A stretch of 64,000 nucleotides of DNA. It comes from Octopus sinensis (Eukaryota). Within the stretch, counting starts at the first letter, position 1. Every line of letters begins with the position of its first letter. Shown here piece by piece: positions 1 to 60,407 of this stretch. The notes below the pieces were generated by a model. That model was not told where the DNA came from. It saw nothing but the letters and a program-made list of their open reading frames with translations, and did no database searches. The translations under genes were made by a program, and so were the position numbers. Where the stretch lies: the NCBI RefSeq assembly GCF_006345805.1, contig NC_043011.1:14458464-14522463 (forward strand), in the 5' to 3' direction.

Positions 1-125
1 TTTTTTAAAGCTATTTCTAATACTTAAAGAAAATCTCTCTCATTTAAAAAAGTTTTTTAGCTGCTATTTCTAATGAGTTCAGTATGCGGCAAAGTAATTT
101 ATTTTACTAAGCCCTTTTATATAAT
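1..125. mobile_element. Terminus of another copy of the 546-bp HHR repeat family (direct piece 1-43, then inverted piece 44-125, ending in (TA)n)
   Basis: 1-43 matches the unit in + orientation. 44-125 is the reverse complement of the unit and ends at the same gcccttttatataat terminus as 5776. Confidence 0.8.
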
Positions 126-140
126 ATATATATATATATA

Positions 141-436
141 TATTAACATCTAATGTAGGATAACATTTTTCGAAAAAAATTCTATCAATGGACAGCATAT
201 TAAAAATACCTTTAAAGGTTAAATTTATAAAAAATTTATAAGTAAGGGCAAAAGAAAAAAATTCTAACTCTGAAATCGGGTCCGATATGGTAATAACGGG
301 ATTATTTAGAAATTTCTGTCGGCTTTCTTTGAAATGCGTGCTTGTAGTGATAAATTACATGGTTATTGACGTTATGTCTATTTTCGGCATATGTTGGCAT
401 TATAATTTTTTTCTTTTGACCTTACTTATAAATTGT
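141..436. mobile_element. Short PLE-like element with inverted end, between (TA)n tracts
   Basis: aatttataagtaagggcaaaagaaaaaaatt (~233-263) is inverted at ~404-434. About 90 nt of unique tail on the left; TA repeats on both sides. Confidence 0.5.
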
Positions 437-738
437 ATATATATATATATATATATATAATTTCAACAATTGAGGGCAAAATTAATTAATTATTAATCAA
501 TTTCACCAAGTGTTCAGTATGCAAAGGGACCATTCAAGGCGAATTCAAATTATTACATTATATAAAAGGGCTTAGTAAAATAAATTACTTTGCCGCATAC
601 TGAACTCATTAGAAATAGCAGCCAAAAAACTTTTTTAAGGCTATTTCTAATACTTAAAGAAAATCTCTCTCATATATAGTGTTTGCATAATTTAACTCAC
701 AAAAGTTTGGGGGTAATGACATCGAAAAATCAAATGCT

Positions 739-809
739 AAGGTTATTCGAGAACGTACGTTTCAAGATTAGTCAAAACAACATTTCTATCATCGGCTCGG
801 AAATTCCTT
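739..809 (-). ncRNA. Type I hammerhead ribozyme motif (first of 9 minus-strand copies, period ~546)
   Basis: Minus strand reads aagg-aattuc-CGAG CCGAUGA uAGA..17 nt..UCUu GAAA CGUACG UU CUCG-aauaa-ccuu. Stem I CGAG/CUCG plus AAGG/CCUU; palindromic stem III; GUU cleavage triplet. Core has U4C and stem II is weak. Confidence 0.65.
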
Positions 810-3800
810 GGTTTGGATTTGGAAACACTGAAAATAAGAACATACCCTCTCGAAGATCTGCTCCCAACTAACAGTGTCAACAAATTCAAAATAAGCAAGC
901 GAAGAATCTCTGTTCTCCCCTTTCCACCAGCGTGGGTTAAAATCATCAAACTCTATGCTTATTTCGGTAAAGTCCGAAGCATTAATCAGAGGGAGATTAA
1001 TTATAATTTCAACAATTGAGGGCAAAATTAATTAATTATTAATCAATTTCACCAAGTGTTCAGTATGCAAAGGGACCATTCAAGGCGAATTCAAATTATT
1101 ACATTATATAAAAGGGCTTAGTAAAATAAATTACTTTGCCGCATACTGAACTCATTAGAAATAGCAGCCAAAAAACTTTTTTAAGGCTATTTCTAATACT
1201 TAAAGAAAATCTCTCTCATATATAGTGTTTGCATAATTTAACTCACAAAAGTTTGGGGGTAATGACATCGAAAAATCAAATGCTAAGGTTATTCGAGAAC
1301 GTACGTTTCAAGATTAGTCAAAACAACATTTCTATCATCGGCTCGGAAATTCCTTGGTTTGGATTTGGAAACACTGAAAATAAGAACATACCCTCTCGAA
1401 GATCTGCTCCCAACTAACAGTGTCAACAAATTCAAAATAAGCAAGCGAAGAATCTCTGTTCTCCCCTTTCCACCAGCGTGGGTTAAAATCATCAAACTCT
1501 ATGCTTATTTCGGTAAAGTCCGAAGCATTAATCAGAGGGAGATTAATTATAATTTCAACAATTGAGGGCAAAATTAATTAATTATTAATCAATTTCACCA
1601 AGTGTTCAGTATGCAAAGGGACCATTCAAGGCGAATTCAAATTATTACATTATATAAAAGGGCTTAGTAAAATAAATTACTTTGCCGCATACTGAACTCA
1701 TTAGAAATAGCAGCCAAAAAACTTTTTTAAGGCTATTTCTAATACTTAAAGAAAATCTCTCTCATATATAGTGTTTGCATAATTTAACTCACAAAAGTTT
1801 GGGGGTAATGACATCGAAAAATCAAATGCTAAGGTTATTCGAGAACGTACGTTTCAAGATTAGTCAAAACAACATTTCTATCATCGGCTCGGAAATTCCT
1901 TGGTTTGGATTTGGAAACACTGAAAATAAGAACATACCCTCTCGAAGATCTGCTCCCAACTAACAGTGTCAACAAATTCAAAATAAGCAAGCGAAGAATC
2001 TCTGTTCTCCCCTTTCCACCAGCGTGGGTTAAAATCATCAAACTCTATGCTTATTTCGGTAAAGTCCGAAGCATTAATCAGAGGGAGATTAATTATAATT
2101 TCAACAATTGAGGGCAAAATTAATTAATTATTAATCAATTTCACCAAGTGTTCAGTATGCAAAGGGACCATTCAAGGCGAATTCAAATTATTACATTATA
2201 TAAAAGGGCTTAGTAAAATAAATTACTTTGCCGCATACTGAACTCATTAGAAATAGCAGCCAAAAACTTTTTTAAGGCTATTTCTAATACTTAAAGAAAA
2301 TCTCTCTCATATATAGTGTTTGCATAATTTAACTCACAAAAGTTTGGGGGTAATGACATCGAAAAATCAAATGCTAAGGTTATTCGAGAACGTACGTTTC
2401 AAGATTAGTCAAAACAACATTTCTATCATCGGCTCGGAAATTCCTTGGTTTGGATTTGGAAACACTGAAAATAAGAACATACCCTCTCGAAGATCTGCTC
2501 CCAACTAACAGTGTCAACAAATTCAAAATAAGCAAGCGAAGAATCTCTGTTCTCCCCTTTCCACCAGCGTGGGTTAAAATCATCAAACTCTATGCTTATT
2601 TCGGTAAAGTCCGAAGCATTAATCAGAGGGAGATTAATTATAATTTCAACAATTGAGGGCAAAATTAATTAATTATTAATCAATTTCACCAAGTGTTCAG
2701 TATGCAAAGGGACCATTCAAGGCGAATTCAAATTATTACATTATATAAAAGGGCTTAGTAAAATAAATTACTTTGCCGCATACTGAACTCATTAGAAATA
2801 GCAGCCAAAAAACTTTTTTAAGGCTATTTCTAATACTTAAAGAAAATCTCTCTCATATATAGTGTTTGCATAATTTAACTCACAAAAGTTTGGGGGTAAT
2901 GACATCGAAAAATCAAATGCTAAGGTTATTCGAGAACGTACGTTTCAAGATTAGTCAAAACAACATTTCTATCATCGGCTCGGAAATTCCTTGGTTTGGA
3001 TTTGGAAACACTGAAAATAAGAACATACCCTCTCGAAGATCTGCTCCCAACTAACAGTGTCAACAAATTCAAAATAAGCAAGCGAAGAATCTCTGTTCTC
3101 CCCTTTCCACCAGCGTGGGTTAAAATCATCAAACTCTATGCTTATTTCGGTAAAGTCCGAAGCATTAATCAGAGGGAGATTAATTATAATTTCAACAATT
3201 GAGGGCAAAATTAATTAATTATTAATCAATTTCACCAAGTGTTCAGTATGCAAAGGGACCATTCAAGGCGAATTCAAATTATTAAATTATATAAAAGGGC
3301 TTAGTAAAATAAATTACTTTGCCGCATACTGAACTCATTAGAAATAGCAGCCAAAAAACTTTTTTAAGGCTATTTCTAATACTTAAAGAAAATCTCTCTC
3401 ATATATAGTGTTTGCATAATTTAACTCACAAAAGTTTGGGGGTAATGACATCGAAAAATCAAATGCTAAGGTTATTCGAGAACGTACGTTTCAAGATTAG
3501 TCAAAACAACATTTCTATCATCGGCTCGGAAATTCCTTGGTTTGGATTTGGAAACACTGAAAATAAGAACATACCCTCTCGAAGATCTGCTCCCAACTAA
3601 CAGTGTCAACAAATTCAAAATAAGCAAGCGAAGAATCTCTGTTCTCCCCTTTCCACCAGCGTGGGTTAAAATCATCAAACTCTATGCTTATTTCGGTAAA
3701 GTCCGAAGCATTAATCAGAGGGAGATTAATTATAATTTCAACAATTGAGGGCAAAATTAATTAATTATTAATCAATTTCACCAAGTGTTCAGTATGCAAA

Positions 3801-5523
3801 GGGACCATTCAAGGCGAATTCAAATTATTACATTATATAAAAGGGCTTAGTAAAATAAATTACTTTGCCGCATACTGAACTCATTAGAAATAGCAGCCAA
3901 AAACTTTTTTAAGGCTATTTCTAATACTTAAAGAAAATCTCTCTCATATATAGTGTTTGCATAATTTAACTCACAAAAGTTTGGGGGTAATGACATCGAA
4001 AAATCAAATGCTAAGGTTATTCGAGAACGTACGTTTCAAGATTAGTCAAAACAACATTTCTATCATCGGCTCGGAAATTCCTTGGTTTGGATTTGGAAAC
4101 ACTGAAAATAAGAACATACCCTCTCGAAGATCTGCTCCCAACTAACAGTGTCAACAAATTCAAAATAAGCAAGCGAAGAATCTCTGTTCTCCCCTTTCCA
4201 CCAGCGTGGGTTAAAATCATCAAACTCTATGCTTATTTCGGTAAAGTCCGAAGCATTAATCAGAGGGAGATTAATTATAATTTCAACAATTGAGGGCAAA
4301 ATTAATTAATTATTAATCAATTTCACCAAGTGTTCAGTATGCAAAGGGACCATTCAAGGCGAATTCAAATTATTACATTATATAAAAGGGCTTAGTAAAA
4401 TAAATTACTTTGCCGCATACTGAACTCATTAGAAATAGCAGCCAAAAAACTTTTTTAAGGCTATTTCTAATACTTAAAGAAAATCTCTCTCATATATAGT
4501 GTTTGCATAATTTAACTCACAAAAGTTTGGGGGTAATGACATCGAAAAATCAAATGCTAAGGTTATTCGAGAACGTACGTTTCAAGATTAGTCAAAACAA
4601 CATTTCTATCATCGGCTCGGAAATTCCTTGGTTGGATTTGGAAACACTGAAAATAAGAACATACCCTCTCGAAGATCTGCTCCCAACTAACAGTGTCAAC
4701 AAATTCAAAATAAGCAAGCGAAGAATCTCTGTTCTCCCCTTTCCACCAGCGTGGGTTAAAATCATCAAACTCTATGCTTATTTCGGTAAAGTCCGAAGCA
4801 TTAATCAGAGGGAGATTAATTATAATTTCAACAATTGAGGGCAAAATTAATTAATTATTAATCAATTTCACCAAGTGTTCAGTATGCAAAGGGACCATTC
4901 AAGGCGAATTCAAATTATTACATTATATAAAAGGGCTTAGTAAAATAAATTACTTTGCCGCATACTGAACTCATTAGAAATAGCAGCCAAAAAACTTTTT
5001 TAAGGCTATTTCTAATACTTAAAGAAAATCTCTCTCATATATAGTGTTTGCATAATTTAACTCACAAAAGTTTGGGGGTAATGACATCGAAAAATCAAAT
5101 GCTAAGGTTATTCGAGAACGTACGTTTCAAGATTAGTCAAAACAACATTTCTATCATCGGCTCGGAAATTCCTTGGTTTGGATTTGGAAACACTGAAAAT
5201 AAGAACATACCCTCTCGAAGATCTGCTCCCAACTAACAGTGTCAACAAATTCAAAATAAGCAAGCGAAGAATCTCTGTTCTCCCCTTTCCACCAGCGTGG
5301 GTTAAAATCATCAAACTCTATGCTTATTTCGGTAAAGTCCGAAGCATTAATCAGAGGGAGATTAATTATAATTTCAACAATTGAGGGCAAAATTAATTAA
5401 TTATTAATCAATTTCACCAAGTGTTCAGTATGCAAAGGGACCATTGAATTTGTTGACACTGTTAGTTGGGAGCAGATCTTCGAGAGGGTATGTTCTTATT
5501 TTCAGTGTTTCCAAATCCAAACC

Positions 5524-5594
5524 AAGGAATTTCCGAGCCGATGATAGAAATGTTGTTTTGACTAATCTTGAAACGTACGTTCTCGAATAACCTT
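5524..5594 (+). ncRNA. Type I hammerhead ribozyme motif in the inverted partial unit
   Basis: cgag ccgatga taga...tctt gaaa cgtacg tt ctcg, read directly on +. Confidence 0.65.
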
Positions 5595-5776
5595 AGCATT
5601 TGATTTTTCGATGTCATTACCCCCAAACTTTTGTGAGTTAAATTATGCAAACACTATATATGAGAGAGATTTTCTTTAAGTATTAGAAATAGCCTTAAAA
5701 AAGTTTTTTGGCTGCTATTTCTAATGAGTTCAGTATGCGGCAAAGTAATTTATTTTACTAAGCCCTTTTATATAAT

Positions 5777-5943
<167 letters not shown>

Positions 5944-6059
5944 ATGGTGGACTCTCGACGTGTGAATGTTCAGCTTTTTGTTGAACGGTCTGTAGAAATG
6001 ATTTGTTTATAGGGATTAAATGCATGTGCTGTAGATTATCTCACTCTTTCCTTGTGCCA

Positions 6060-6203
6060 CGTATCAAGGGTCGAAGTGATTGCAGAGCAACGAGAAATGA
6101 AGTGTGTTGCTCAAGAACACAACGCACCACCTGGTCTAGGTGTTGAAACAACGACCTCGCGATTGTGAGAGCGGCATCGTAACCACTAGGCCATGCGCCC
6201 TCA
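6060..6203 (-). mobile_element. Degenerate tRNA-derived SINE head
   Basis: Minus strand gagggcgcatggcctagtggttacgatgccgc (A box) followed by gtgttcttgagcaacacacttcatttc. Confidence 0.6.
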
Positions 6204-6224
6204 CACACACACGCACATCTATAT

Positions 6225-6600
6225 GGAAGCCCTCCGTCGGTTACGACGACGAGGGTTCCGGTTGATCCGAATCAACGGAACAGCCAGCTCGTGAAATTAA
6301 CGTGTAAGTGTGAGCACTCCACAGACACGTGTACCCTTAACGTAGTTCTCGGGGATATTCAGCGTGACACAGAGAGTGACAAGGCCGGCCCTTTGAAATA
6401 CAGGTACAACAGAAATAGGAAGTAAGAGAAAGTTGTGGTGAAAGAGTACAGCAGGGATCACCACCATCCCCTGCCGGAGCCTCGTGGAACTTTTAGGTGT
6501 TTTCGCTCAATAAACACTCACAACGCCCGGTCTGGGAATCGAAACCGCGATCTTACGACCGCGAGTCCGCTGCCCTAACCACTGGGCCATTGCGCCTCCA
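6225..6600 (-). mobile_element. tRNA(Arg)-like SINE (octopus OR-type) with TSD
   Basis: Head ggaggcgcaatggcccagtggttagggcagcggactcgcggtcg..ggtttcgattccc has A and B boxes. TSD cg(c/t)acatctatat at 6212-6224 and 6601-6613. Homologous to 42127-42436. Confidence 0.85.
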
Positions 6601-8069
6601 CGTACATCTATATACACGCATATGTGTGTTATATTTAGATATAACGTAATGTATCGAACTGAAATATTGTGCTGCTATCATTTCTTCTTTCTCTTCTGAA
6701 ATTGCCATCTGCTTTCCACTAGAATCTCTCTTTCGACAACTACCTATCACACTCACTCATTCAACCACCGTCTGTAGATCCACTAAACTATAAAAGCTGA
6801 TCTTTCTCCCTCCCTCTCTCGCTGTGTGTGTATCTCTCTCTCTCTTTAGATCTGCATCTCTCAATACCTCATTATCTGGTTATATGTTCCCATTAATTAC
6901 CGTCCTTCACTTCTTCAAACACTACATCAATGTTGTCAACTTTCATCCATCCTTCCTTTTCTTTGGTTGGGTTTATGAAGATAAGTTGACATACACAAAG
7001 CTATGTATACACGTGTGTTCATATGTGTGAGTGTGCCTATGTCGTACAGTTCCAGTTCCTTCTACATCGATATATTATCCCAGAAAATAATGTTATCCGG
7101 AAAATAAAGCAACGTATCTTTTCTATCTGATTAGAAAAAAAAAAGTATCTTCGGGAATAGTTAGGCTTTTGTAAGTAAGTAGAAGCTATATATTTTATAT
7201 GCTACATTTTGCAAAATAACCATTTTTTTGTCAATAGTGTGGCCATTTTATTGATGGGATTCCTGTTTCAGCCTAGGTCTTAAAAGGAAAAAAAAAAGAA
7301 TCATATATTGTCTAAAGCTGTGTGATAAATGTATTGTTGCTCGATCGAAGAAGATCAATAAACTATCAGAGCACACTGCCACATGGCTTGCTTTGTCGCT
7401 CCAAGAAATGAACGCACTGTGTTATTTAATAGGCTAGCAGCTTAAGAGCAGTAAAAAATGGAATAGTTTTGTAAGAACTATTGATAAGTGTATTTATGTA
7501 GAGATTCTAAAGGTTGTTGCCGACAGTATAGAGAAAGCAGCTGATTTGGATCAAGGAGCTACTTATATATTGAAACTGTTATGAGATTAAAACGTTGATA
7601 TTTCTTACCTGAAATTAGGGATGCTGGACCGTCAACCTGCATGAATATACTTAAAATCGAAACAAACAGCTTGCAGATTTCTTGATGGTATCATTCACTA
7701 TAAAATAGCGGCATCTGAAAAGCAGAATATGACCCTATCTTGACCCGTGGCTAACAATTAAGAACACTATTTCAGTTAATGCTTCACTTGTGTTTCTTTA
7801 ATAAATAGTTTCTTCTCCTTTTTAGCACCACGCCAAGCAAACAACTATATCTAGCATGTACTTGCTACCAAGCTTTTACATCTTTCTTCATGATCCATCG
7901 TAGGCACTTCATTACGTCCCATACGAGATATAAATTTTAGAAATATTTTTTTGAAGTCAGCTGAATTTTATCAACTGGAAATGCTATAAAAAAAAACAAA
8001 AACAAAAAAAAACAAAAACAAAAGCGAACCAAATAATATAAAAAAATTGAAGAGTTCCGTAAAATTATT

Positions 8070-21449: not shown

Positions 21450-23560
21450 TGGTTGTTTCTGATTAAAGCAAAGGATCAACAATTTTAAAAGGAGGGATTT
21501 AATCGACCTCACTGATCCCAGTACTTGACTAGTACGATATTATCAAGATCTCGGAGGATTGAAAAGTTAAGGTGACTTCGGCGGGATTTTATACCCAGGA
21601 CGCAAAATGCCCGAATAGATACATACCGAAGCACATATTTTCTTACGTAAGGCGGCGATCTGGCAGAAACGTTAGCACGTCGGGCGAAATGCGTAGCCGT
21701 ATTTCGTCTGCCTTTACGTTCTGAGTTCAAATTCCGCCGAGGTCGACTTTGCCATTAATCTTTGCGGGGTCGATAATTAAGTACCAGTTACGCACTGGGG
21801 TCGATGTAATCGACTTAATCCCCTTGTCTGTCCTTCTTTGTCCCCTCTATGTTTAGCCCCTTGTGGGCAATAAAGAAATACATATTTTCTTACGTTCTGC
21901 TGACTCCATCAGCCCACAACCATTAATAGAGAAATAGTTGGTTCTGATTTAGGCAGAAGGCCAGAAATTTTGAGGGGGAGAAGTTAATCGGTACAGTTCG
22001 CACCAGTTCTTGACTAGTTTTTTTTATTTTATCGACCCCAAAGAATGAAAGGTAAAGTTGATCTCGATGAGATTTGAAACTACAATGTAAAGAGCCGGAC
22101 GAAATGCCACAAAGCATTTTGCCCGGCGTTCTAATCATTCTGCCAACCCATCGACCTTTTTTTTTCTGAGGGGAAAAACGATTTTCGAACTAACAAATTG
22201 ACTACAAATTGCAACTTTTAGATAAAAACGTATTGATAAACGTATCGTTCCGCCATACTTAGCAGAATGATATGTTAAGACATTGATAAGCTAGCAACAC
22301 TGCATGAGACATGCTGAGTAAGATCTGATCTTAGCCATATGGATGTAGGCATTGCTCACTATCTTTAATGTTATCATTATTACTAAGGCAGTAAAGGCGG
22401 TGAGCTGGCAGAATTGGTAGCATTCCAGGCGAAATGCTTAGCGGCATTTCGTCTGTCTTCACATTCTGAGTTCAAATTCCACCGAGGTCGACTTTGCCTT
22501 TCATCCTTTGGGGGTCGATCAAATAAGTACAAGTTGTGTACTGGGATCGATAACAACCGACTATCCCACTCCCCACAATTCCAGGCTTCCAGCCTGTTGC
22601 AGAAAGCATTATTTTTAAGGCAGCGAGCTGGCAGAATCGTTAACCCGCCGGAAAAATTGCTTAGCGCTATTTCGTCCGTCATTAGGTTCTGATTACAAAT
22701 TCCGGCGAGTTGACTTTGCCTTTCATCATTTCGGGGTTGATAAAATAAGTAGCAGTTGAACACTAGGGTCGATGAATTGAACTTACGCTCTTCCCAGAAA
22801 TTGCCGCTTTGTGCTAAAATTTGAAACCATTATTATATAAATATAATTCACTAATACAAAGATTATTTTTGTTTTCAAATCCCAAACTCTGTATATCTCT
22901 ATATAGATTATATTGGATAAATTCTCCATTTTTTAAAGAGATATTATTTGTCACAATAGTTACTTCGACCAGGAAGGTTTCTTCACAATATCCGGTCGAA
23001 CTGTTTTGGTCAATTTGTCTATGTGCAGAAACAGCTCACCCAAAACGGTCACTTTGTCATTGTCTGCGACCGTCTTGGCGTATGTTTATACCACCTCTCC
23101 TGTTGATATTTCATGGCACTGGTATAATACGCATTATATAATAAGGGCGGCGAGCTGGCAGAAACGTTAGCACGCCGGGCGAAATGCTTCGCGGTATTTC
23201 ATCTGCCGCTACGTTCTGAGTTCAAATTCCCCCGAGGTCGACTTTGCCTTTCATCCTTTCGGGGTCGATTAAATAAGTACCAGTTACGCACTGGGGTCGA
23301 TATAATCGACTTAATCCGTTTGTCTGTCTTTGTTTGTTCTCTCTGTGTTTAGCCCCTTGTGGGTAGTAAAGAAACAGGTATTTCGTCTGCCGTTACGTTC
23401 TGAGTTCAAATTCCGCCGAGGTCGACTTTGCCTTTCATCCTTTCGGGATCGATTAAATAAGTACCAGTTACGCACTGGGGTCGATATAATCGACTTAATC
23501 CGTTTGTCTGTCTTTGTTTGTCCTCTCTGTGTTTAGCCCCTTGTGGGTAGTAAAGAAATT
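21450..23560. mobile_element. Cluster of Meta/MESC-domain SINEs (21649-21879 +, ~21940-22155 -, ~22395-22605 +, ~22617-22830 +, 23143-23560 + with internal duplication)
   Basis: Repeated gcctttcatcctttcggggtcgat motif. TSDs acatattttcttacgt (21633-21648 / 21880-21895) and tggtataa.acgcatt.tata (23120-23140 / 23560-23580). Confidence 0.85.
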
Positions 23561-24304
23561 GGTATAAAACGCATTCTATAGAAGTTCTAATTATGTTTTG
23601 TTTGTACGTGTGTTCTCTGCTTATATATTCTCTCAATCTAGAATATCATTATATATTATCCTGTTTACTTTTGGTATTCAGCTGTTTTAATCTTTAAATC
23701 AGGTGGAGAACCTATACGCCAAGGAAACCGGGAAAACGACCTTTATGAGATAGGCATGGCTCGAGAAGGAACAAACAACAAACCTAGGTAATTAAGTATT
23801 CGTAAGATTATTACATGATGATGTAAAGATAGTTGTATTCTCATCATGGTTGTTATATTCACAATGTTTCAGATGTATTTATCGCTCTTCTTCAAGTGTC
23901 TCGTCGCATTTGGTGATATATACCCAGAATTTTGAACGGAAACATTTCTTAAAACCAAAGGGCAGAATGTCCTCAATTCGTTGGCCATACTTGAGGTATT
24001 CTCGTTTATTTGTGATACCATGTGCTCGAACCTGACTCGCGTATTCAATCTATATGTATTCTAGTTGATGCGAAATGATCAAGCGGTATCAAAAGTACGA
24101 GAATAACAATACGAAAATATTTCGCTATGGATAACCAAACGAAAACAATTCACCCCGGTAGACTGAAAGAAATTTTTCATTCAAATTCTGAAAATATCAT
24201 TGAATACTCTATACAGGTACCTGAAGAAGGCCAGAGGGTACAACGATTGAATCATTGCGAATAAGGTGACTAAAATCAAGACACTAAGGTAAAAGTAAAG
24301 TTAC

Positions 24305-27345: not shown

Positions 27346-27472
27346 CCTCCTTCCCTTCTTTCCTGAGTCTCAGTAATACTTTAATTGTTCCACGTCCTGC
27401 GTTGCTGTGTTTTTTTTCTCTTTTTTTCTGTGTTTTCTTGTTTGGATATATATATATATATATATAATATAT

Positions 27473-27516
<44 letters not shown>

Positions 27517-27527
27517 ATATATGTATA

Positions 27528-27857
27528 TGTAAGAATATTTTGCGTAATAAGATAAAAAACCAAGGCTATGTAGATATTAGAGCATTTATAGATAGAAGGT
27601 CTTACAGCTGTTTCTAGGATATTTATTAATTATATCCCTTCATCGGAAACGGTGTGAGAGGATAGTTAAGTTATAGTTAGTTTAAATGTGATACAAAATA
27701 GAGAGTGAGGTGGAGAAAAGAAAATATATGCAAGATATGTATGGGTATTGAAGTTTTTTCAGGCATAATGGTATACATGCAAAAGTTCAAAAGTTCAACA
27801 GAGTTTAAAATGAGTTCTTCCAAATATAGAGTTTATAAGCAATATATATATATATAT

Positions 27858-27949
<92 letters not shown>

Positions 27950-28260
27950 GTAAGAATATTTTGCGTAATAAGATAAAAAACCAAGGCTATGTAGATATTA
28001 GAGCATTTATAGATAGAAGGTCTTACAGCTGTTTCTAGGATATTTATTAATTATATCCCTTCATCGGAAACGGTGTGAGAGGATAGTTAAGTTATAGTTA
28101 GTTTAAATGTGATACAAAATAGAGAGTGAGGTGGAGAAAAGAAAATATATGCAAGATATGTATGGGTATTGAAGTTTTTTCAGGCATAATGGTATACATG
28201 CAAAAGTTCAAAAGTTCAACAGAGTTTAAAATGAGTTCTTCCAAATATAGAGTTTATAAG

Positions 28261-28263
<3 letters not shown>
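27528..28263 (-). mobile_element. Two identical ~315-bp HHR-bearing units separated by (TA)n, period 421
   Basis: Duplicate ORFs at 27705 and 28126. Each unit is flanked by TA repeats. Confidence 0.8.
27599..27650 (-). ncRNA. Type I hammerhead motif (second copy at 28020-28071)
   Basis: Minus strand GUUU CCGAUGA ag GGAUAU aauuaauaa AUAUCC ua GAAA CAGCUG UA AGAC. Palindromic stem III; GUA triplet. Confidence 0.7.
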
Positions 28264-28314
<51 letters not shown>

Positions 28315-28320
<6 letters not shown>

Positions 28321-28530
28321 ATTTAGGAATGGTCATTTTGCCAGTTTAGCCAATAAAAACACACGCACTATATATTTGGTGTTACTTTGCTTCAGCGTTA
28401 TTTAATTTTTACATTAATCTTAATCTTATTTCGGCCAAATCTTATTGGCTAAACTGGCAAAATGACCATTCCTAAATACAACAAGCCCTGTTTCAACACA
28501 CGATTTCATATAAAAAATCTTGCAAAACAT
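28315..28530 (+). mobile_element. PLE-like element of the same family as 60041-60407: inverted piece, sense end and tail, in (TA)n
   Basis: ttgttgtatttaggaatggtc..gccaataa is inverted at 28442-28484. Tail tgtttcaacacacgatttca..cttgcaaaaca is shared with 60353-60400. Confidence 0.75.
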
Positions 28531-29556: not shown

Positions 29557-32500
29557 TTTTTTTTTCTTCTTTCAAATTTGCTTCCATTTCTTGCCGAGTG
29601 TCTTCCCGACTCCTAGGGCAAAGAAACTCATAGTATACATTGGTAGGCCATTAAACCAAACTCAATAGTTCGTTCATTTTTTTAATTTTTAATTTTTTTT
29701 AAAGTTAAATTAAAATACATGAGCAGCAACAGTTCTCACATCGACAATGCTCTTCTCAATACGTGTGATGTACCAGTTAAGACAATCTTTTGCACTTCTT
29801 GCAGGGATGGTAAGCCAGGGATCATTCTCATATAATTTTCGGTTCCCTTCTTGATCATTCCTAGTGCTCCTACGATCACTGGTATTGTAATCGCCTTGAG
29901 ATGCCACATTTTCTCAATTTCAATGAGTAGGTCTTTATATTTTCTGAGCTTGTCAAACTCTTTCGCTGAGATGTTATGATCACAGGGGATGCTCATATCG
30001 ATCAATAAGCAAACTTTATTGTTTTGGTCTTTCACAACAATATCTGGTTTATTGGCCTTGATGGTTCGGTCTGTATGTACTGGAAAGTCCCACAGAATGG
30101 TTACATTTTCTCCTTCAGTTACAGCCTCAGGGTGGTGATTATACCACTTGTCGGCAGTTTTGATATTGTAATGCCGACTTATTAGCCAGTGGAGATATTG
30201 GCCAACTCTGTCATGTCTTAATTTATACTCCACTGGTGCTAAGACTTTACATCCAGAGATTAGGTGGTCCACTGTTTCAATCGTGTGGTTGCAGAATCGG
30301 CATTTTGGGTCTGCTCCATTTTTCATCACATTGGCCTGGTAGTTCCGGGTTAATAGGCTTTGATCTTGAGCAGCCAGGATGAAACCTTCGCTCTCTGCTT
30401 TTAGCCCTGAGCTCCGTAGCCACTGATGGGTTTGCTTCTGGTCAACATCAGCTTGTTTGCTGCGGGTCACATATTTGCCGTGCAGAGGTTTCTCCTCCCA
30501 CCTATCAGCCAATTGCTCGTGCGCTTTTTTCGTTGCCATCATTTTCACCTTCTTTGCAACAATAGTTGCCGTACTTCCCTCGGGTTGTTCAGTTTGGGTA
30601 TCCTGCACGAGATCAATAGCAAATTTTTTGCTTTCCTTTATAATAGAATGAAGCTTCTTTCGTCTCTCGTGATTTTCCACGAGCTTTAGCATCCAGTCAT
30701 TCGATATTTCAAGATATTTGGCCAGTCCAATTGTGGTTGTTTTGTAAGCTAGTTCAAATTGGATCAGGCCTCGACCTCCTTGGGCTCTGGGAAGGTAAAG
30801 GCGATCTACGTCTGCCCTTGGGTGGTGCATCCTATTACAACTCAGCAGCTTGCGTATTTTCCTATCTATATTCTTTACTTCACTCATATTCCAGTTCAAC
30901 ACATTGTAGCTATAAGTAACAACTGGAACTGCTAAGGAATTTATAGCTAACACCTTGTTACGTGCATTTAGTTCAGATTTCAGGACTGCACGAACTCTCC
31001 TATAACATTCCGTCCTGATCTTCTCTTTCATGCTTGCATGCTGAATACCAAATCTTTCATTTATCCCTAAATATTTGTATGTTTGTTCTTGCTCAAGCTC
31101 TCTTATGACTGTGTCAACATCTAACACGACTGAATTTGTGGTCTTCACTTTCCCTTTCTGGAAGGTGGCCTTGGTACACTTCTCAAGTCCAAACTCCATC
31201 CCGATGTCATCGCTGAATGCTTTCACGGTGCGCAATAGGCCTTCAAGTTCATTATTGTCTTTATCATAAAGTTTTAAGTCATCCATATAAAATAGATGGC
31301 TTATTTTTTTATTGGCAATTTTATACCCATACCCTGTTCTGTTTAATTCACTTGTAAGTGGTATTAGGGCTATGCAGAATATTAAAGGTGAAAGTGGGTC
31401 ACCTTGAAAAATTCCACAGTTGATGTTTATATTTTCTGAGGCAAGTACTCCATTAGAGTGGTATAATTGGAGATTCGTATTCCACAACGACATATTGTGC
31501 TCTAGGAAGTTTGAAATCACAGGGGAAATTTTGAAGATGTCCAGCGATCTCAAGATCCATGGATGCGGTATACTGTCGAAGGCCTTTTTATAGTCAATCC
31601 ATGCGGTGCTGAGATTTCTGCGCTTGTTGTGACAGTTCTCAAGGATCATACGATTGATTAGCAGTTGATCTTTGCATCCGTAAGAGCCTCGGCGGCACCC
31701 TTTTTGTTCAATGGGGAAAATATCGTTCTTCTCCATGAATGCATATGTTTTCTCCGCCAGGATAGATGTTAGGATTTTATACGTGGTGGATAGACAGGTT
31801 ATAGGGCGATAATTTTTTGGAAGGTTGGTTTCGTTATTCTTTGGGAGTAGGTAAGTAATGCCACTTGCTAACCATTCAGGTGTTTTCTTTGGGTCTCTCA
31901 TAATTCCATTGAGCAGCTGAACTAGCTTTCCGTGTGCGCATGGGAGCGATGCGAGCCAGAAATTCGGCACCCTATCTTTACCGGGGGATTTCCAATTATG
32001 GGCCTTCGTGAGTGCCTTTCTTAGGTCTGCTATTGTGATGTCTTCCCATGCTTGTTGTTGTAAATTTTGGTAGGATCCTTCAGTTTGTATAATCCAGTCT
32101 GCATTTATGTTGTACGTCTTCTTGTCACTCCAAATCCTTTTCCAAAAGTTTTGAACATCTTCCATGGGAGGGGGGTCTTTAACGGTTACTTTCTCCTTCC
32201 CTATTTCTCTGTAGAATTTTTTGGCATTGGATGTGAACAGCTTATTTTGCTTGTAAAACTTGTTTCTCTTCTCAGATCTTCGTATTCTTTGGGCTTTTGC
32301 TTGGACTTTTTGTTTCAGCATTTCTTTTATTGATATCAGTTCTTCTCTTGGTGAGGATCCAAATTTTCTCTTCATCTTTCTTCCTGTTCTGGATCTTACA
32401 TCATTTCCACATATTAGTTCATTTAATATTGATATTTCCCCTCTCATAAATTCAATCTCTTTTTCAATTTTACTTCTCCAGGTTTGATTTCTTCCCAGGT

Positions 32501-34427
32501 TTTGTTTTCTTTGTTTTTTCGGGGGCATACAGCTGGTTTCAATTGCCCTAGCAGAAGCGTAAATAACTTCATTTAACTCAGTAAAATCAGGTTTTAATTC
32601 TTGTATTATTTCATTTGTTACATAGTTGCCAATTTGGATTTGTTTTTTATTTTGGTTTGTATTTGAGAGTTTATGAAGTGGTTCTCTATCATTCATACTT
32701 GTATGTCTTACAACTTCAAGCGTATTCAGGATTTTCTGCCTCATTTCTGCCATAGACTCTCTGTGTTCTTCAGCAAATGCGAGATCTTCAGTTACTGTTG
32801 TTTTTTCGTTTTCCTGGCTATCTTTAACAGGTACAATAGAATTTCTTGTATCTTCAGGCCTTTGCGTACTTTGGTCAGATGGCAGTCTTTCAATTAAGCC
32901 TCGTGGCGGGCTATACTGTTCATCTGATTCTTCATTTCCTTTGTGTCTTATATTTATGTCATTTTCCGTTGCGTGCTTGATCGCGCTTATTTCACTGTCC
33001 GTGAGTCTGTTATTTCTAAGGATATCCCTCCTCACATTTGCTAATTTGTTCTCGTCCAAATAGGGCCTACTGTCTTGATTCCGTGTTCTCCATATACTGT
33101 AAGAGTTTGCGGTGTGTCTCTCTTGAGATGGCCTACCTAATGCATAGTAATAAGCGTATATTACTTCTTTATACTCTTCTCGGGTCCATTTGTTCCGCTT
33201 ACATTTTTCTTTCTGTGGTGGTTGTGGTGGTGAACTTGGAGGGCTCGAGTTGGGGGATTTCCCGTTCAAGTGACCATCCATGTCCGTATTCGGAGAAGAG
33301 TTTGTGCCAGTTGATGACTTTTCGATCCCAGGCTGGCTCTTCCCTGGGGGACGCGCTTCCAGATTAACCATAGGACAAGCGATTTGGTATACTGATTTAG
33401 TTTTCCTTTTAGTTTCCAAAAACATTTTGGTGCTACGATAATGTTATCATTTTTTAGCTTTGATTGGCTCGTGGGGAGACGGCCATCATTGCCGTTACAA
33501 TTATAATCGTACCATTATAGCAGCCGTAGTCGGCTTATTATTGTTATTATCATCACCATTATTATCACTATCATCATTATCACCACCATCACCATCATCA
33601 TCATCATCACCATCACCATCGTCATCATCAATGATATTGTTTTATGTGTAGTCACAGCAGTATCTTATTATTGTTATTTTTTATCATCATCACCATCACA
33701 GTAGTGTCTGTCTGTCTCGTTGGCTGGCTTGTTGGTTGGCTGGCTGACTGTCTTCAACGCCAGAGTTCTTGCCTGTCAAATAATACTTTCATATTTGGTT
33801 AACAATAGAGCCGAGGTGAGGTTTTGTGTTGGTTGAAGTCTTTGAGTGTGTGTGTGTGTGTGTGTAGATAGATAGATAGATTATCAGCACTATTACTATC
33901 ATTATTATCATCATCACCATCATCACCATCACCATCAGTGATATTTTTTTATTTTTTATTTTTAATTATTTATTTTTTTTTTAGGTGGGGTCCTATCGGT
34001 CAAAAAAAGTTCAGATGTTTACTACTATTAGGCCTAAGAAAAATTAAGGAAGGGCTGTTCTGTATTGTTTGTGAATAGAGAAGTTGTGTTCGACCAGAGG
34101 GAATCTTAGCATCATCATTTTTTTTTTTCCATGTGCGTTTGTGTTATTGCAATAAAAAGTCTTTGTATATTTCGTGTAAGGTAATATTGTGGAGGTTGAA
34201 GTTGACTTTTCTAGAGATGTTTGTATATCCAGTTAGAAGAACAGGTGTGTTTTTACAATAAAAAGTATATGTTTACATTTATATTTGAATATTCAGGGAG
34301 GAAGCAAAGAAAAGTCAGATTTTCATAGAAAGTTTTAGGGTTTTGTAAGTCCACAAAAAGAAAAGCGTGATGTTTTTAGAGAGAAGAAAAAAAAGGATGT
34401 TTACAGAGGCAATTGTGGGTATCAAAG

Positions 34428-59887: not shown

Positions 59888-60040
59888 GGATAAATTCGAT
59901 CTTTTCAGACACCCACGTTCCAGTGGATTATGTAACTTGTCAACAACGTTATCAGAACTGTTAACATCACAATATAAAAAATACAAAGATATGAAATCAC
60001 CTTTGTGATATTTCTTATAGAACTATCAATACACTATGTT

Positions 60041-60407
60041 GTTGTATTTAGGAATGGCCATGTTGCCAGTTTAGCCAATAAAAATACACGCACTATGTAT
60101 TTGGTGTTAATTTGCTTCAGCTTTATTTATATATTTTTTGGCTGATCGTTAATAAGGAGAGACACACAAATAAGAAATAAGAAAGCAAAGGACCACTGAT
60201 GAGGTCACAGAAGTGTGACGAAAGAACTCTGGCCGAAATAAGATTCAGATTAATGTAGAAAATAAATAAAGCTGAAGCAAATTAAAACCAAATATATAGT
60301 GCGTGTGTTTTTATTGGCTAAACTGGCAACATGACCATCCCCAAATACAACAATATCTGTTTCAACACACGATTTCACATCAAGAATCTTGCAAAACAAA
60401 TATATAA
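60041..60407 (+). mobile_element. PLE-like element: ~90-bp inverted piece, HHR, sense end and tail
   Basis: 60041-60130 is the reverse complement of ~60262-60352; same family as 28315-28530. Confidence 0.75.
60190..60234 (+). ncRNA. Minimal type I hammerhead ribozyme
   Basis: gga-CCA CUGAUGA g GUCACA gaag UGUGAC GAAA GAAC UC UGG-cc. Canonical core; CUC cleavage after 60229. Confidence 0.8.

Follow-up and report, generated by a model that had tools for sequence, protein, structure and literature searches.

Structure of the tandem array

The genome of Octopus sinensis contains, on contig NC_043011.1 of the NCBI RefSeq assembly GCF_006345805.1, a tandem array of a non-coding repeat with a hammerhead ribozyme motif in every unit. 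The array lies near the beginning of a stretch of 64,000 nucleotides (nt; positions 14,458,464 to 14,522,463 of the forward strand), which is called the window here and provides the coordinates given below. As a single young insertion, the array belongs to a hammerhead repeat family that is dispersed and non-coding, and it is a non-long terminal repeat (non-LTR) retrozyme according to the sequence-level definition of that class.

The long arm of the array (456–5445, minus strand) is composed of 9.1 tandem units of 545–546 base pairs (bp). The nine full units start at positions 456, 1002, 1548, 2094, 2639, 3185, 3731, 4276, and 4821, and a partial tenth unit reaches from 5367 to approximately 5445. 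Five of the full units have the sequence of unit 1, three carry a one-base deletion, and one a substitution, so that the differences do not exceed one base. This organization bears out a preliminary description of the locus, which reported approximately 9.1 nearly identical head-to-tail units within (TA)n. At a 2-nt microhomology, the long arm is joined to an inverted arm of 333 bp (5444–5776/5779, plus strand). Both flanks consist of the (TA)n microsatellite that served as the target (437–458 on the left and 5769–5942 on the right). A target-site duplication is not discernible within the (TA)n at this locus; a repeat of the flanks is visible by eye at another genomic locus, L057.

Positions within the unit are numbered from q1, the first base past the predicted ribozyme cut (window position 751, minus strand, in the RNA sense). 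The outer 3′ end of the long arm is at q296, called the long end, and the inverted arm extends from approximately q410 to the short end at q198. The 98 nt between these two fixed 3′ end sites of the family (q199–q296; 456–553, minus strand) form a tail that is present at the outer end of the long arm only. The inverted piece, which had been interpreted as a partial unit capping the array, represents not a cap but a second arm, whose 3′ end is likewise fixed. The segment q88–296 constitutes a 3′ module that is retained in relatives of the unit at 67–79% identity. It includes a predicted hairpin (approximately q100–147; 605–652, minus strand), which is a candidate recognition element.

The content of guanine and cytosine (GC) in the array is 33.5%. 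The longest open reading frame (ORF) starting with ATG encodes 67 amino acids, in agreement with the previous statement that the array has no credible ORF. The short open frames of the unit have 75–92 codons from stop to stop. The reverse transcriptase (RT) and GIY-YIG ORF by which an autonomous Penelope-like element is recognized are missing. The assignment to non-LTR retrozymes is based on the tandem units with one type I hammerhead each, the non-coding sequence, the GC content below 50%, and the unit length of 546 bp, which is within the published range of 51–972 bp (10.64898/2026.07.22.740005). The unit is therefore not unusually long, contrary to what had been supposed.

Hammerhead motif of the repeat unit

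The motif of unit 1 (740–807, minus strand) has its predicted cut between positions 752 and 751, as previously proposed, and recurs in all nine full units. A tenth motif is located on the plus strand in the inverted arm (5526–5593, predicted cut after 5581). The core of the motif is CCGAUGA, with cytosine at position 4 (U4C), whereas the canonical core is CUGAUGA. The remaining conserved core is present (C3, G5, A6, G8, A9, G12, A13, A14, A15.1-U16.1, and H17), and the cleavage triplet is GUU. Stem II is long and opens with a U-U mismatch, and stem III consists of two base pairs closed by a palindromic loop. The type I motif and palindromic stem III of the preliminary description are present, but the ribozyme is neither minimal, given its long stem II and the 2-bp stem III with its palindromic loop, nor canonical at position 4.

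Position 4 is C in the subfamily of the window and U in sister subfamilies with approximately 80–97% identity. One base pair of stem I shifts between U-A, U-G, and C-G across the subfamilies, and the most diverged subfamily has a GUA triplet and a G-U pair at the base of stem II. In 13 variants, stems I, III, and the distal part of stem II are 100% paired, and 94.5% of the cells are paired overall, compared with 26–57% in slid controls. Pattern searches of the genome identified 2,686 canonical-core and 1,005 U4C-core matches (3,691 in total) and none for reversed control patterns; therefore, the occurrence of the motif is far beyond chance. Relatives that are 67–79% identical to the unit over q88–296 have canonical hammerheads of their own. 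Published work describes U4C as a naturally occurring variant that has lower activity in vitro but suffices in a viroid (PMC3088659), and hammerheads with a short palindromic stem III as acting in dimeric form (PMC4209133). On the basis of the pairing, the canonical sister subfamilies, the hammerheads of the relatives, and these precedents, the motif in the window is read as belonging to a real ribozyme lineage, with the activity of the U4C variant only predicted.

Several results oppose this assignment. The covariation among the 13 variants is limited to one two-sided change, via a wobble pair, and is not significant, as 83 of 500 shuffles were equally high. The hammerhead model search suggested in the preliminary description, carried out as an Rfam scan of positions 1–8000 of the window, returned no hammerhead at E ≤ 1. 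In three of four subfamilies folded alone, the structure of minimum energy is not the hammerhead, and the U4C change reduces activity in vitro (PMC3088659).

The circularised monomer has a predicted fold with z = −4.4 relative to 40 shuffles. Its size, hammerhead, and stable predicted circular fold are properties that would also be expected if a viroid-like circular RNA with autonomous replication had left endogenous copies. However, such an origin is hardly credible: only one polarity was noted to carry a hammerhead, the predicted fold branches instead of forming a rod, and the family comprises nested subfamilies with ordered diagnostic changes, as expected of a genomic retroelement lineage. 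Nothing points to RNA-to-RNA replication, and the designation of the array as a circular-RNA replicon is not retained.

The U4C change recurs in at least three unrelated hammerhead families of this genome.

Dispersal of the family

A search of the 2.72 Gb genome with a 311-nt query yielded 1,418 candidates, and the first 40 of them that were scored, located on 10 contigs, are all 100% identical over 311 nt. Exact junctions with (TA)n were found 314 times for the long end (q296) and 974 times for the short end (q198), and never for controls; both counts are lower bounds on the number of insertions. The array in the window is one of at least approximately a thousand insertions. The (TA)n target was also seen in 18 loci chosen by internal identity and not by junction, and at the far ends of anchored loci. 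The insertions have a median length of 623 bp (n = 113), 22 of the 113 reach three units, and only three reach 4.5 kb, which places the array in the window among the longest; some arrays of the family consist purely of repeat units, up to 12 or more of them. Sequencing runs under four organism codes contain the unit, and none of these runs is on record as RNA. Many arrays of the youngest subfamily lack recurrent substitutions relative to one another. The family looks large and very recently active, with a ribozyme that appears to have been overlooked by the Rfam scan.

Contigs of two unlabelled runs have T-to-C changes on the plus strand at 23 and 15 places, compared with 7 in a presumed DNA run and 4 in a third run of the same study. 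These changes would fit adenosine-to-inosine editing of the ribozyme strand. They are not counted as evidence of it, because the flank used as a silent control is itself a repeat and there is no DNA from the same individuals.

Pairing of two fixed 3′ ends

The ends of the insertions were compared in 118 loci, each anchored on one end only: 60 of the 314 long-end loci and 58 of the 974 short-end loci, taken from the tops of the lists, with short-end loci already present in the long-end sample skipped. All 94 resolved inverted insertions, 54 anchored at the long end and 40 at the short end, pair one long end with one short end at fixed sites 98 nt apart (q296 and q198). Among the remaining loci, 18 have no inverted arm, two contain N gaps, three continue beyond the fetched stretch, and one is interrupted. 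The inverted insertions among the 18 loci chosen by internal identity also combine a long and a short end wherever both ends are visible. The same pairing is found in a second, short insertion of the family, the end of which occupies positions 1–128 of the window and which begins approximately 175 bp before it (L049 9726–9900). Loci L127 and L128, candidates for long/long insertions in the focal family, proved to be separate insertions, either neighboring or duplicated, and are not among the 118.

The fixed ends also bear on the possibility that the array and its inverted arm are artefacts of long-read assembly, namely an over-expanded repeat and a fold-back read. The assembly has many indels inside arrays, and the copy number in the window is that of the assembly. 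However, random fold-back reads cannot give fixed paired ends at 94 loci, the head-to-tail joint occurs in contigs of four independent runs, and locus-private variants extend through both arms. An artefact is therefore very unlikely.

The end rule is not restricted to the retrozyme. An autonomous element of the same genome, which from its motifs is taken to be Neptune-like, has 12 long/short insertions, none with two ends of the same type, and six that were left unclassified by pattern (12 of 12 classifiable). This element has a 1,044-codon open frame (L190), a tail of approximately 55–60 nt, and 150 scored copies at 92–100% identity, and members of its family have weak RT and GIY-YIG Pfam matches. 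A distant relative of the retrozyme unit has 11 long/short insertions and two more that were mislabelled short/short by pattern. One true long/long insertion of this relative (L248) is an exception that detracts from the generality of the rule.

Penelope elements are known for an inverted copy truncated at its 5′ end and for a tail on one side (PMC8557442). The enzyme from Anolis nicks and extends both strands, initiates at two sites, one on either side of the tail, and has a predicted dimeric form; in vitro, its choice of start site did not differ between the strands (PMC11167929). By contrast, each of the two sites is used once in the genomic insertions of the octopus. The strict coupling of one long and one short end in the genome thus represents a sharper constraint than the in vitro result. 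The dispersal, the (TA)n targeting, and the inverted arm and one-sided tail, which are as in the autonomous Penelope-like element, make it very probable that the retrozyme is non-autonomous and dependent on Penelope. This agrees with the earlier suggestion of a Penelope RT acting in trans.

The genome has at least three families of autonomous Penelope-like elements with RT or GIY-YIG frames, including the one with copies at 92–100% identity (150 scored). A helper was sought by protein, family, and distant-relative DNA searches of the genome, and 131 loci around Penelope-like ORFs were analyzed out of thousands of candidates. Two outcomes speak against the proposed dependence. No autonomous element that shares the unit or the 3′ module as a matching terminal repeat was found in the 131 loci, and the 3′ module has no sequence in common with the autonomous family that follows this end rule, the score of the comparison being reached by 180 of 300 shuffles. 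No RT ORF is attached to the unit or its 3′ module in these loci; matches to either look like separate short insertions by their coordinates, with the flanks inspected in part. The genome-wide search envisaged in the preliminary description has thus uncovered other arrays, through the exact junctions, but no autonomous Penelope-like element with matching ends in the loci analyzed. In the published text on Xenopus, 21 of 57 families have a matching terminal repeat (pLTR), whereas none was found for the octopus family in the 131 loci.

Template of the insertions

Variants were compared in 62 loci that have sites with threefold or higher coverage, and a variant is called private with respect to approximately 130 sampled loci of a thousand or more. 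A non-majority variant is fixed in all units of 30 of the 62 loci. In 11 loci, the variant occurs in every unit of both arms and is absent from the rest of the sample, and in three further loci a private variant is fixed in a single arm. The array in the window has the minority base at q129, a rare G, in all eight scored units and in both arms. Because variants are fixed across whole arrays, reiterative copying of one unit is indicated. On the other side, 14 of the 62 multi-unit loci have a variant in two or more units but not in all, and privacy is judged within the limited sample of loci. Furthermore, the insertion at L056 has 93G in both terminal pieces and not in the inner unit, which implies a mixed multi-unit template of two haplotypes at least sometimes.

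Arrays might also arise from the insertion of approximately one unit and its later growth into a satellite through slippage or unequal exchange. A survey that covers 31 vertebrates, three insects, and a coral discusses unequal crossover as a means of local expansion (10.64898/2026.07.22.740005). The short length of most octopus insertions (median 623 bp, n = 113) and a few variants common to adjacent units of one arm (L089, L102, and L119) would fit this model. Nevertheless, it is quite improbable, because multi-unit stretches in both orientations have the same private variant with the outer fixed ends intact, and the lack of recurrent mutual substitutions in many arrays of the youngest subfamily allows only a short time in which they could have expanded separately.

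In 29 of the 94 insertions, the two arms have their inner ends within 10 nt of each other, compared with a mean of 5.4 and a maximum of 14 in 5,000 permutations, which favors a common template for both arms. These near-symmetric junctions mostly join arms that differ by approximately 98 nt, the length of the tail. They could result from a single complementary DNA (cDNA) that folds back and is trimmed at a second TA-rich site, and junctions at q44 fit a small self-priming hairpin. However, 65 of the 94 junctions are asymmetric, and in 38 of the 94 insertions the arm with the short end exceeds the other in length. The symmetric junction at L062 has a central base that agrees with the strand of the short arm, which is unable to template the tail (a single locus, read by eye). 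Folding back is therefore an improbable origin of the inverted arm, and it is likely that two cDNAs are primed on one RNA. The preliminary description proposed one rolling-circle cDNA: the reiterated copying of the unit is corroborated by the array-wide fixed variants, but the insertion is better read as two primed cDNAs with different fixed starts.

The 5′ ends of arms are in excess at q1–21, immediately 3′ of the predicted cut (21 compared with 8.0 expected; with one arm per locus, 11.0 compared with 4.4 expected, median P = 0.006). An equally strong hotspot at q43–63 (25 compared with 9.3), which is unrelated to the ribozyme, diminishes the value of this excess as a sign of cleavage, and the ends at the cut site may be in excess for a different reason. 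Most simply, cut linear RNA would coexist with circles or uncut multimers as templates, and priming would occur twice on one molecule.

The hotspot at q43–63 (window approximately 689–709) is often symmetric on both arms and could be a transcription start, a pause, or a self-annealing site.

For long arrays, a circular template is somewhat favored. Alternatively, the same Penelope-dependent element could be copied from a linear uncut multimer transcribed from a homogeneous source array, with no role for circles and the weakened U4C ribozyme leaving longer precursors. The variants present in only some units of L056, L089, and L102 are in line with such a template, as is the reading through of the predicted cut by 112 of the 130 arms that reach it. 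The dominant in vitro substrate of the Anolis enzyme is uncut RNA, and ribozyme mutants left insertion unaffected (PMC11167929). By contrast, 14 different sample-private haplotypes fixed array-wide in the 62 loci would need repeated single-unit bottlenecks followed by reiteration. A lengthening of arrays by U4C is not supported either: loci nearest to the U4C reference have a median length of 493 bp, compared with 817, 696, and 2,373 bp for those nearest to canonical-core references, in small samples of loci assigned by best reference. An exclusively linear template is rather unlikely.

Proposed mechanism of insertion

The array is a recent retrozyme insertion that was probably copied in trans by a Penelope-like RT-endonuclease, with both strands of (TA)n nicked and two cDNAs made on one, probably reiterated or circular, RNA. 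This interpretation builds on direct observations: the insertions are dispersed and target (TA)n, each arm uses one of two 3′ ends that are fixed at a distance of 98 nt, haplotypes are homogeneous across arrays, and the autonomous element follows the same end rule. The arrays would be transcribed as multimers and partly cut by the hammerheads, probably acting as dimers via the palindromic stem III, and some of the monomers may be ligated into circles. The borrowed and probably dimeric enzyme would bind the 3′ module q88–296, and one cDNA would start at q296 and the other at q198. Each cDNA could then extend over a variable length, through several units if the template is circular or multimeric. 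Finally, the two same-sense cDNA ends may join by microhomology or at short palindromes, which would produce the head-to-head structure.

A more specific version of this mechanism is put forward tentatively. The two active sites of the borrowed dimeric Penelope enzyme might start 98 nt apart and circle one ribozyme RNA, the cDNA of one site being displaced by the other, so that each event would write a two-armed array. Priming of one long and one short end would then be obligatory, and recorded in a thousand or more copies and in autonomous elements as well. The structured 3′ module might recruit the enzyme without sequence kinship to the helper, and the ribozyme may have been weakened stepwise in the youngest subfamilies (GUA to GUU, G-U to U-U, and U4 to C4).

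Comparison with known elements

In twin priming of LINE-1 elements, two target strands prime on one RNA, which results in a 5′ inversion joined by microhomology. The octopus insertions share with it the 5′ inversion, the microhomology at the joint, and probably the priming of two strands on one RNA. Whereas the second priming site of LINE-1 is variable and internal, both sites are fixed in the octopus family and both arms copy the same sequence.

Endonuclease-bearing Penelope-like elements, including Neptune, Naiad, and Penelope/Poseidon, have in common with the octopus family the partial tandems, the inverted 5′-truncated copy, the tail at one end, the (TA)n target, the hammerhead in the repeat, and the two start sites bounding the tail (PMC8557442, PMC11167929, PMC4209133). 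Unlike in the Penelope-like elements described in these texts, the octopus unit has no RT or GIY-YIG ORF and is repeated purely in up to 12 or more units; its tail of 98 nt compares with 30–40 nt.

Animal non-LTR retrozymes from coral, mussel, and axolotl likewise consist of non-coding tandem units with one type I hammerhead each and low GC content, and co-occur with Penelope-like elements (PMC7229834, 10.64898/2026.07.22.740005). The mussel provides the molluscan examples (PMC7229834), and non-LTR retrozymes have been argued to be non-autonomous Penelope derivatives (10.64898/2026.07.22.740005). The axolotl ribozyme HHR_Amex2, which cleaves best as a dimer, resembles that of the octopus in the 2-bp stem III with a tetraloop and the U-U at the base of stem II (PMC7229834). 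In contrast to the retrozymes described in the available text of these sources, the octopus arrays form dispersed insertions, which have two fixed ends and inverted arms of the Penelope type, and the core of the youngest subfamily is U4C; cleavage and circularization of the octopus RNA are predicted.

The retrozyme is of a kind that is already known, and the anatomy of the insertion, with its paired fixed ends, is the new part. No account of this family in cephalopods or of a strict end rule was found in the literature searched; older Penelope papers, Repbase entries, and figure supplements may show the pairing qualitatively. Ribozymes are not mentioned in the available parts of the text and supplement of an octopus repeat annotation (PMC13282606). 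The origin of the tandem, inverted, and tailed insertions of Penelope has been called undefined (PMC8557442), and the mobilization of retrozymes by Penelope-like elements via circular RNA has been argued so far from co-occurrence, shared ribozymes, and repeat kinship. The octopus family offers footprints in the genome itself: a non-coding passenger bears the end signature of Penelope, the start sites are strictly paired, and rare variants are fixed array-wide. By these footprints, copying that is reiterative or by rolling circle can be told apart from a later growth of satellites, and concrete predictions are provided for the existing in vitro Penelope system, so that a poorly understood mechanism of jumping becomes testable through the insertion pattern.

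Related and neighboring elements

A wider clan of hammerhead elements shares the q88–296 module at 67–79% identity (L196 482–690, L231–L260, L038, L049 9440–9650, L064, L069, L112, and L121). A search with one member gave 1,843 candidates, and one element of the clan is located just upstream of the window. Two copies of a TA-flanked 421-bp unit of an unrelated family, which has relatives in L192 and L218, are present at 27447–28315. Their hammerhead motifs (at approximately 27640 and 28061, minus strand) likewise combine CCGAUGA with a stem III that is palindromic. At L012, L037, L050, L082, L295, L309, and L320 there is a third hammerhead family, whose core is either CCGACGA or CCGAUGA and whose members often form inverted pairs.

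The frame of the autonomous Neptune-like element has a long Asn/Ser/Gly-rich low-complexity N-terminal region (L190 3710–4400). Short 3′-end fragments of this family, each an inverted pair, are located in the window at 28302–28484 and 60035–60356. The window also contains an intact 1,235-codon frame of a non-LTR retrotransposon (29739–33443, minus strand; PF00078, E = 8e-30). Two tandem copies of a 184-bp repeat, which is presumably similar to a short interspersed element, occupy positions 23193–23565.

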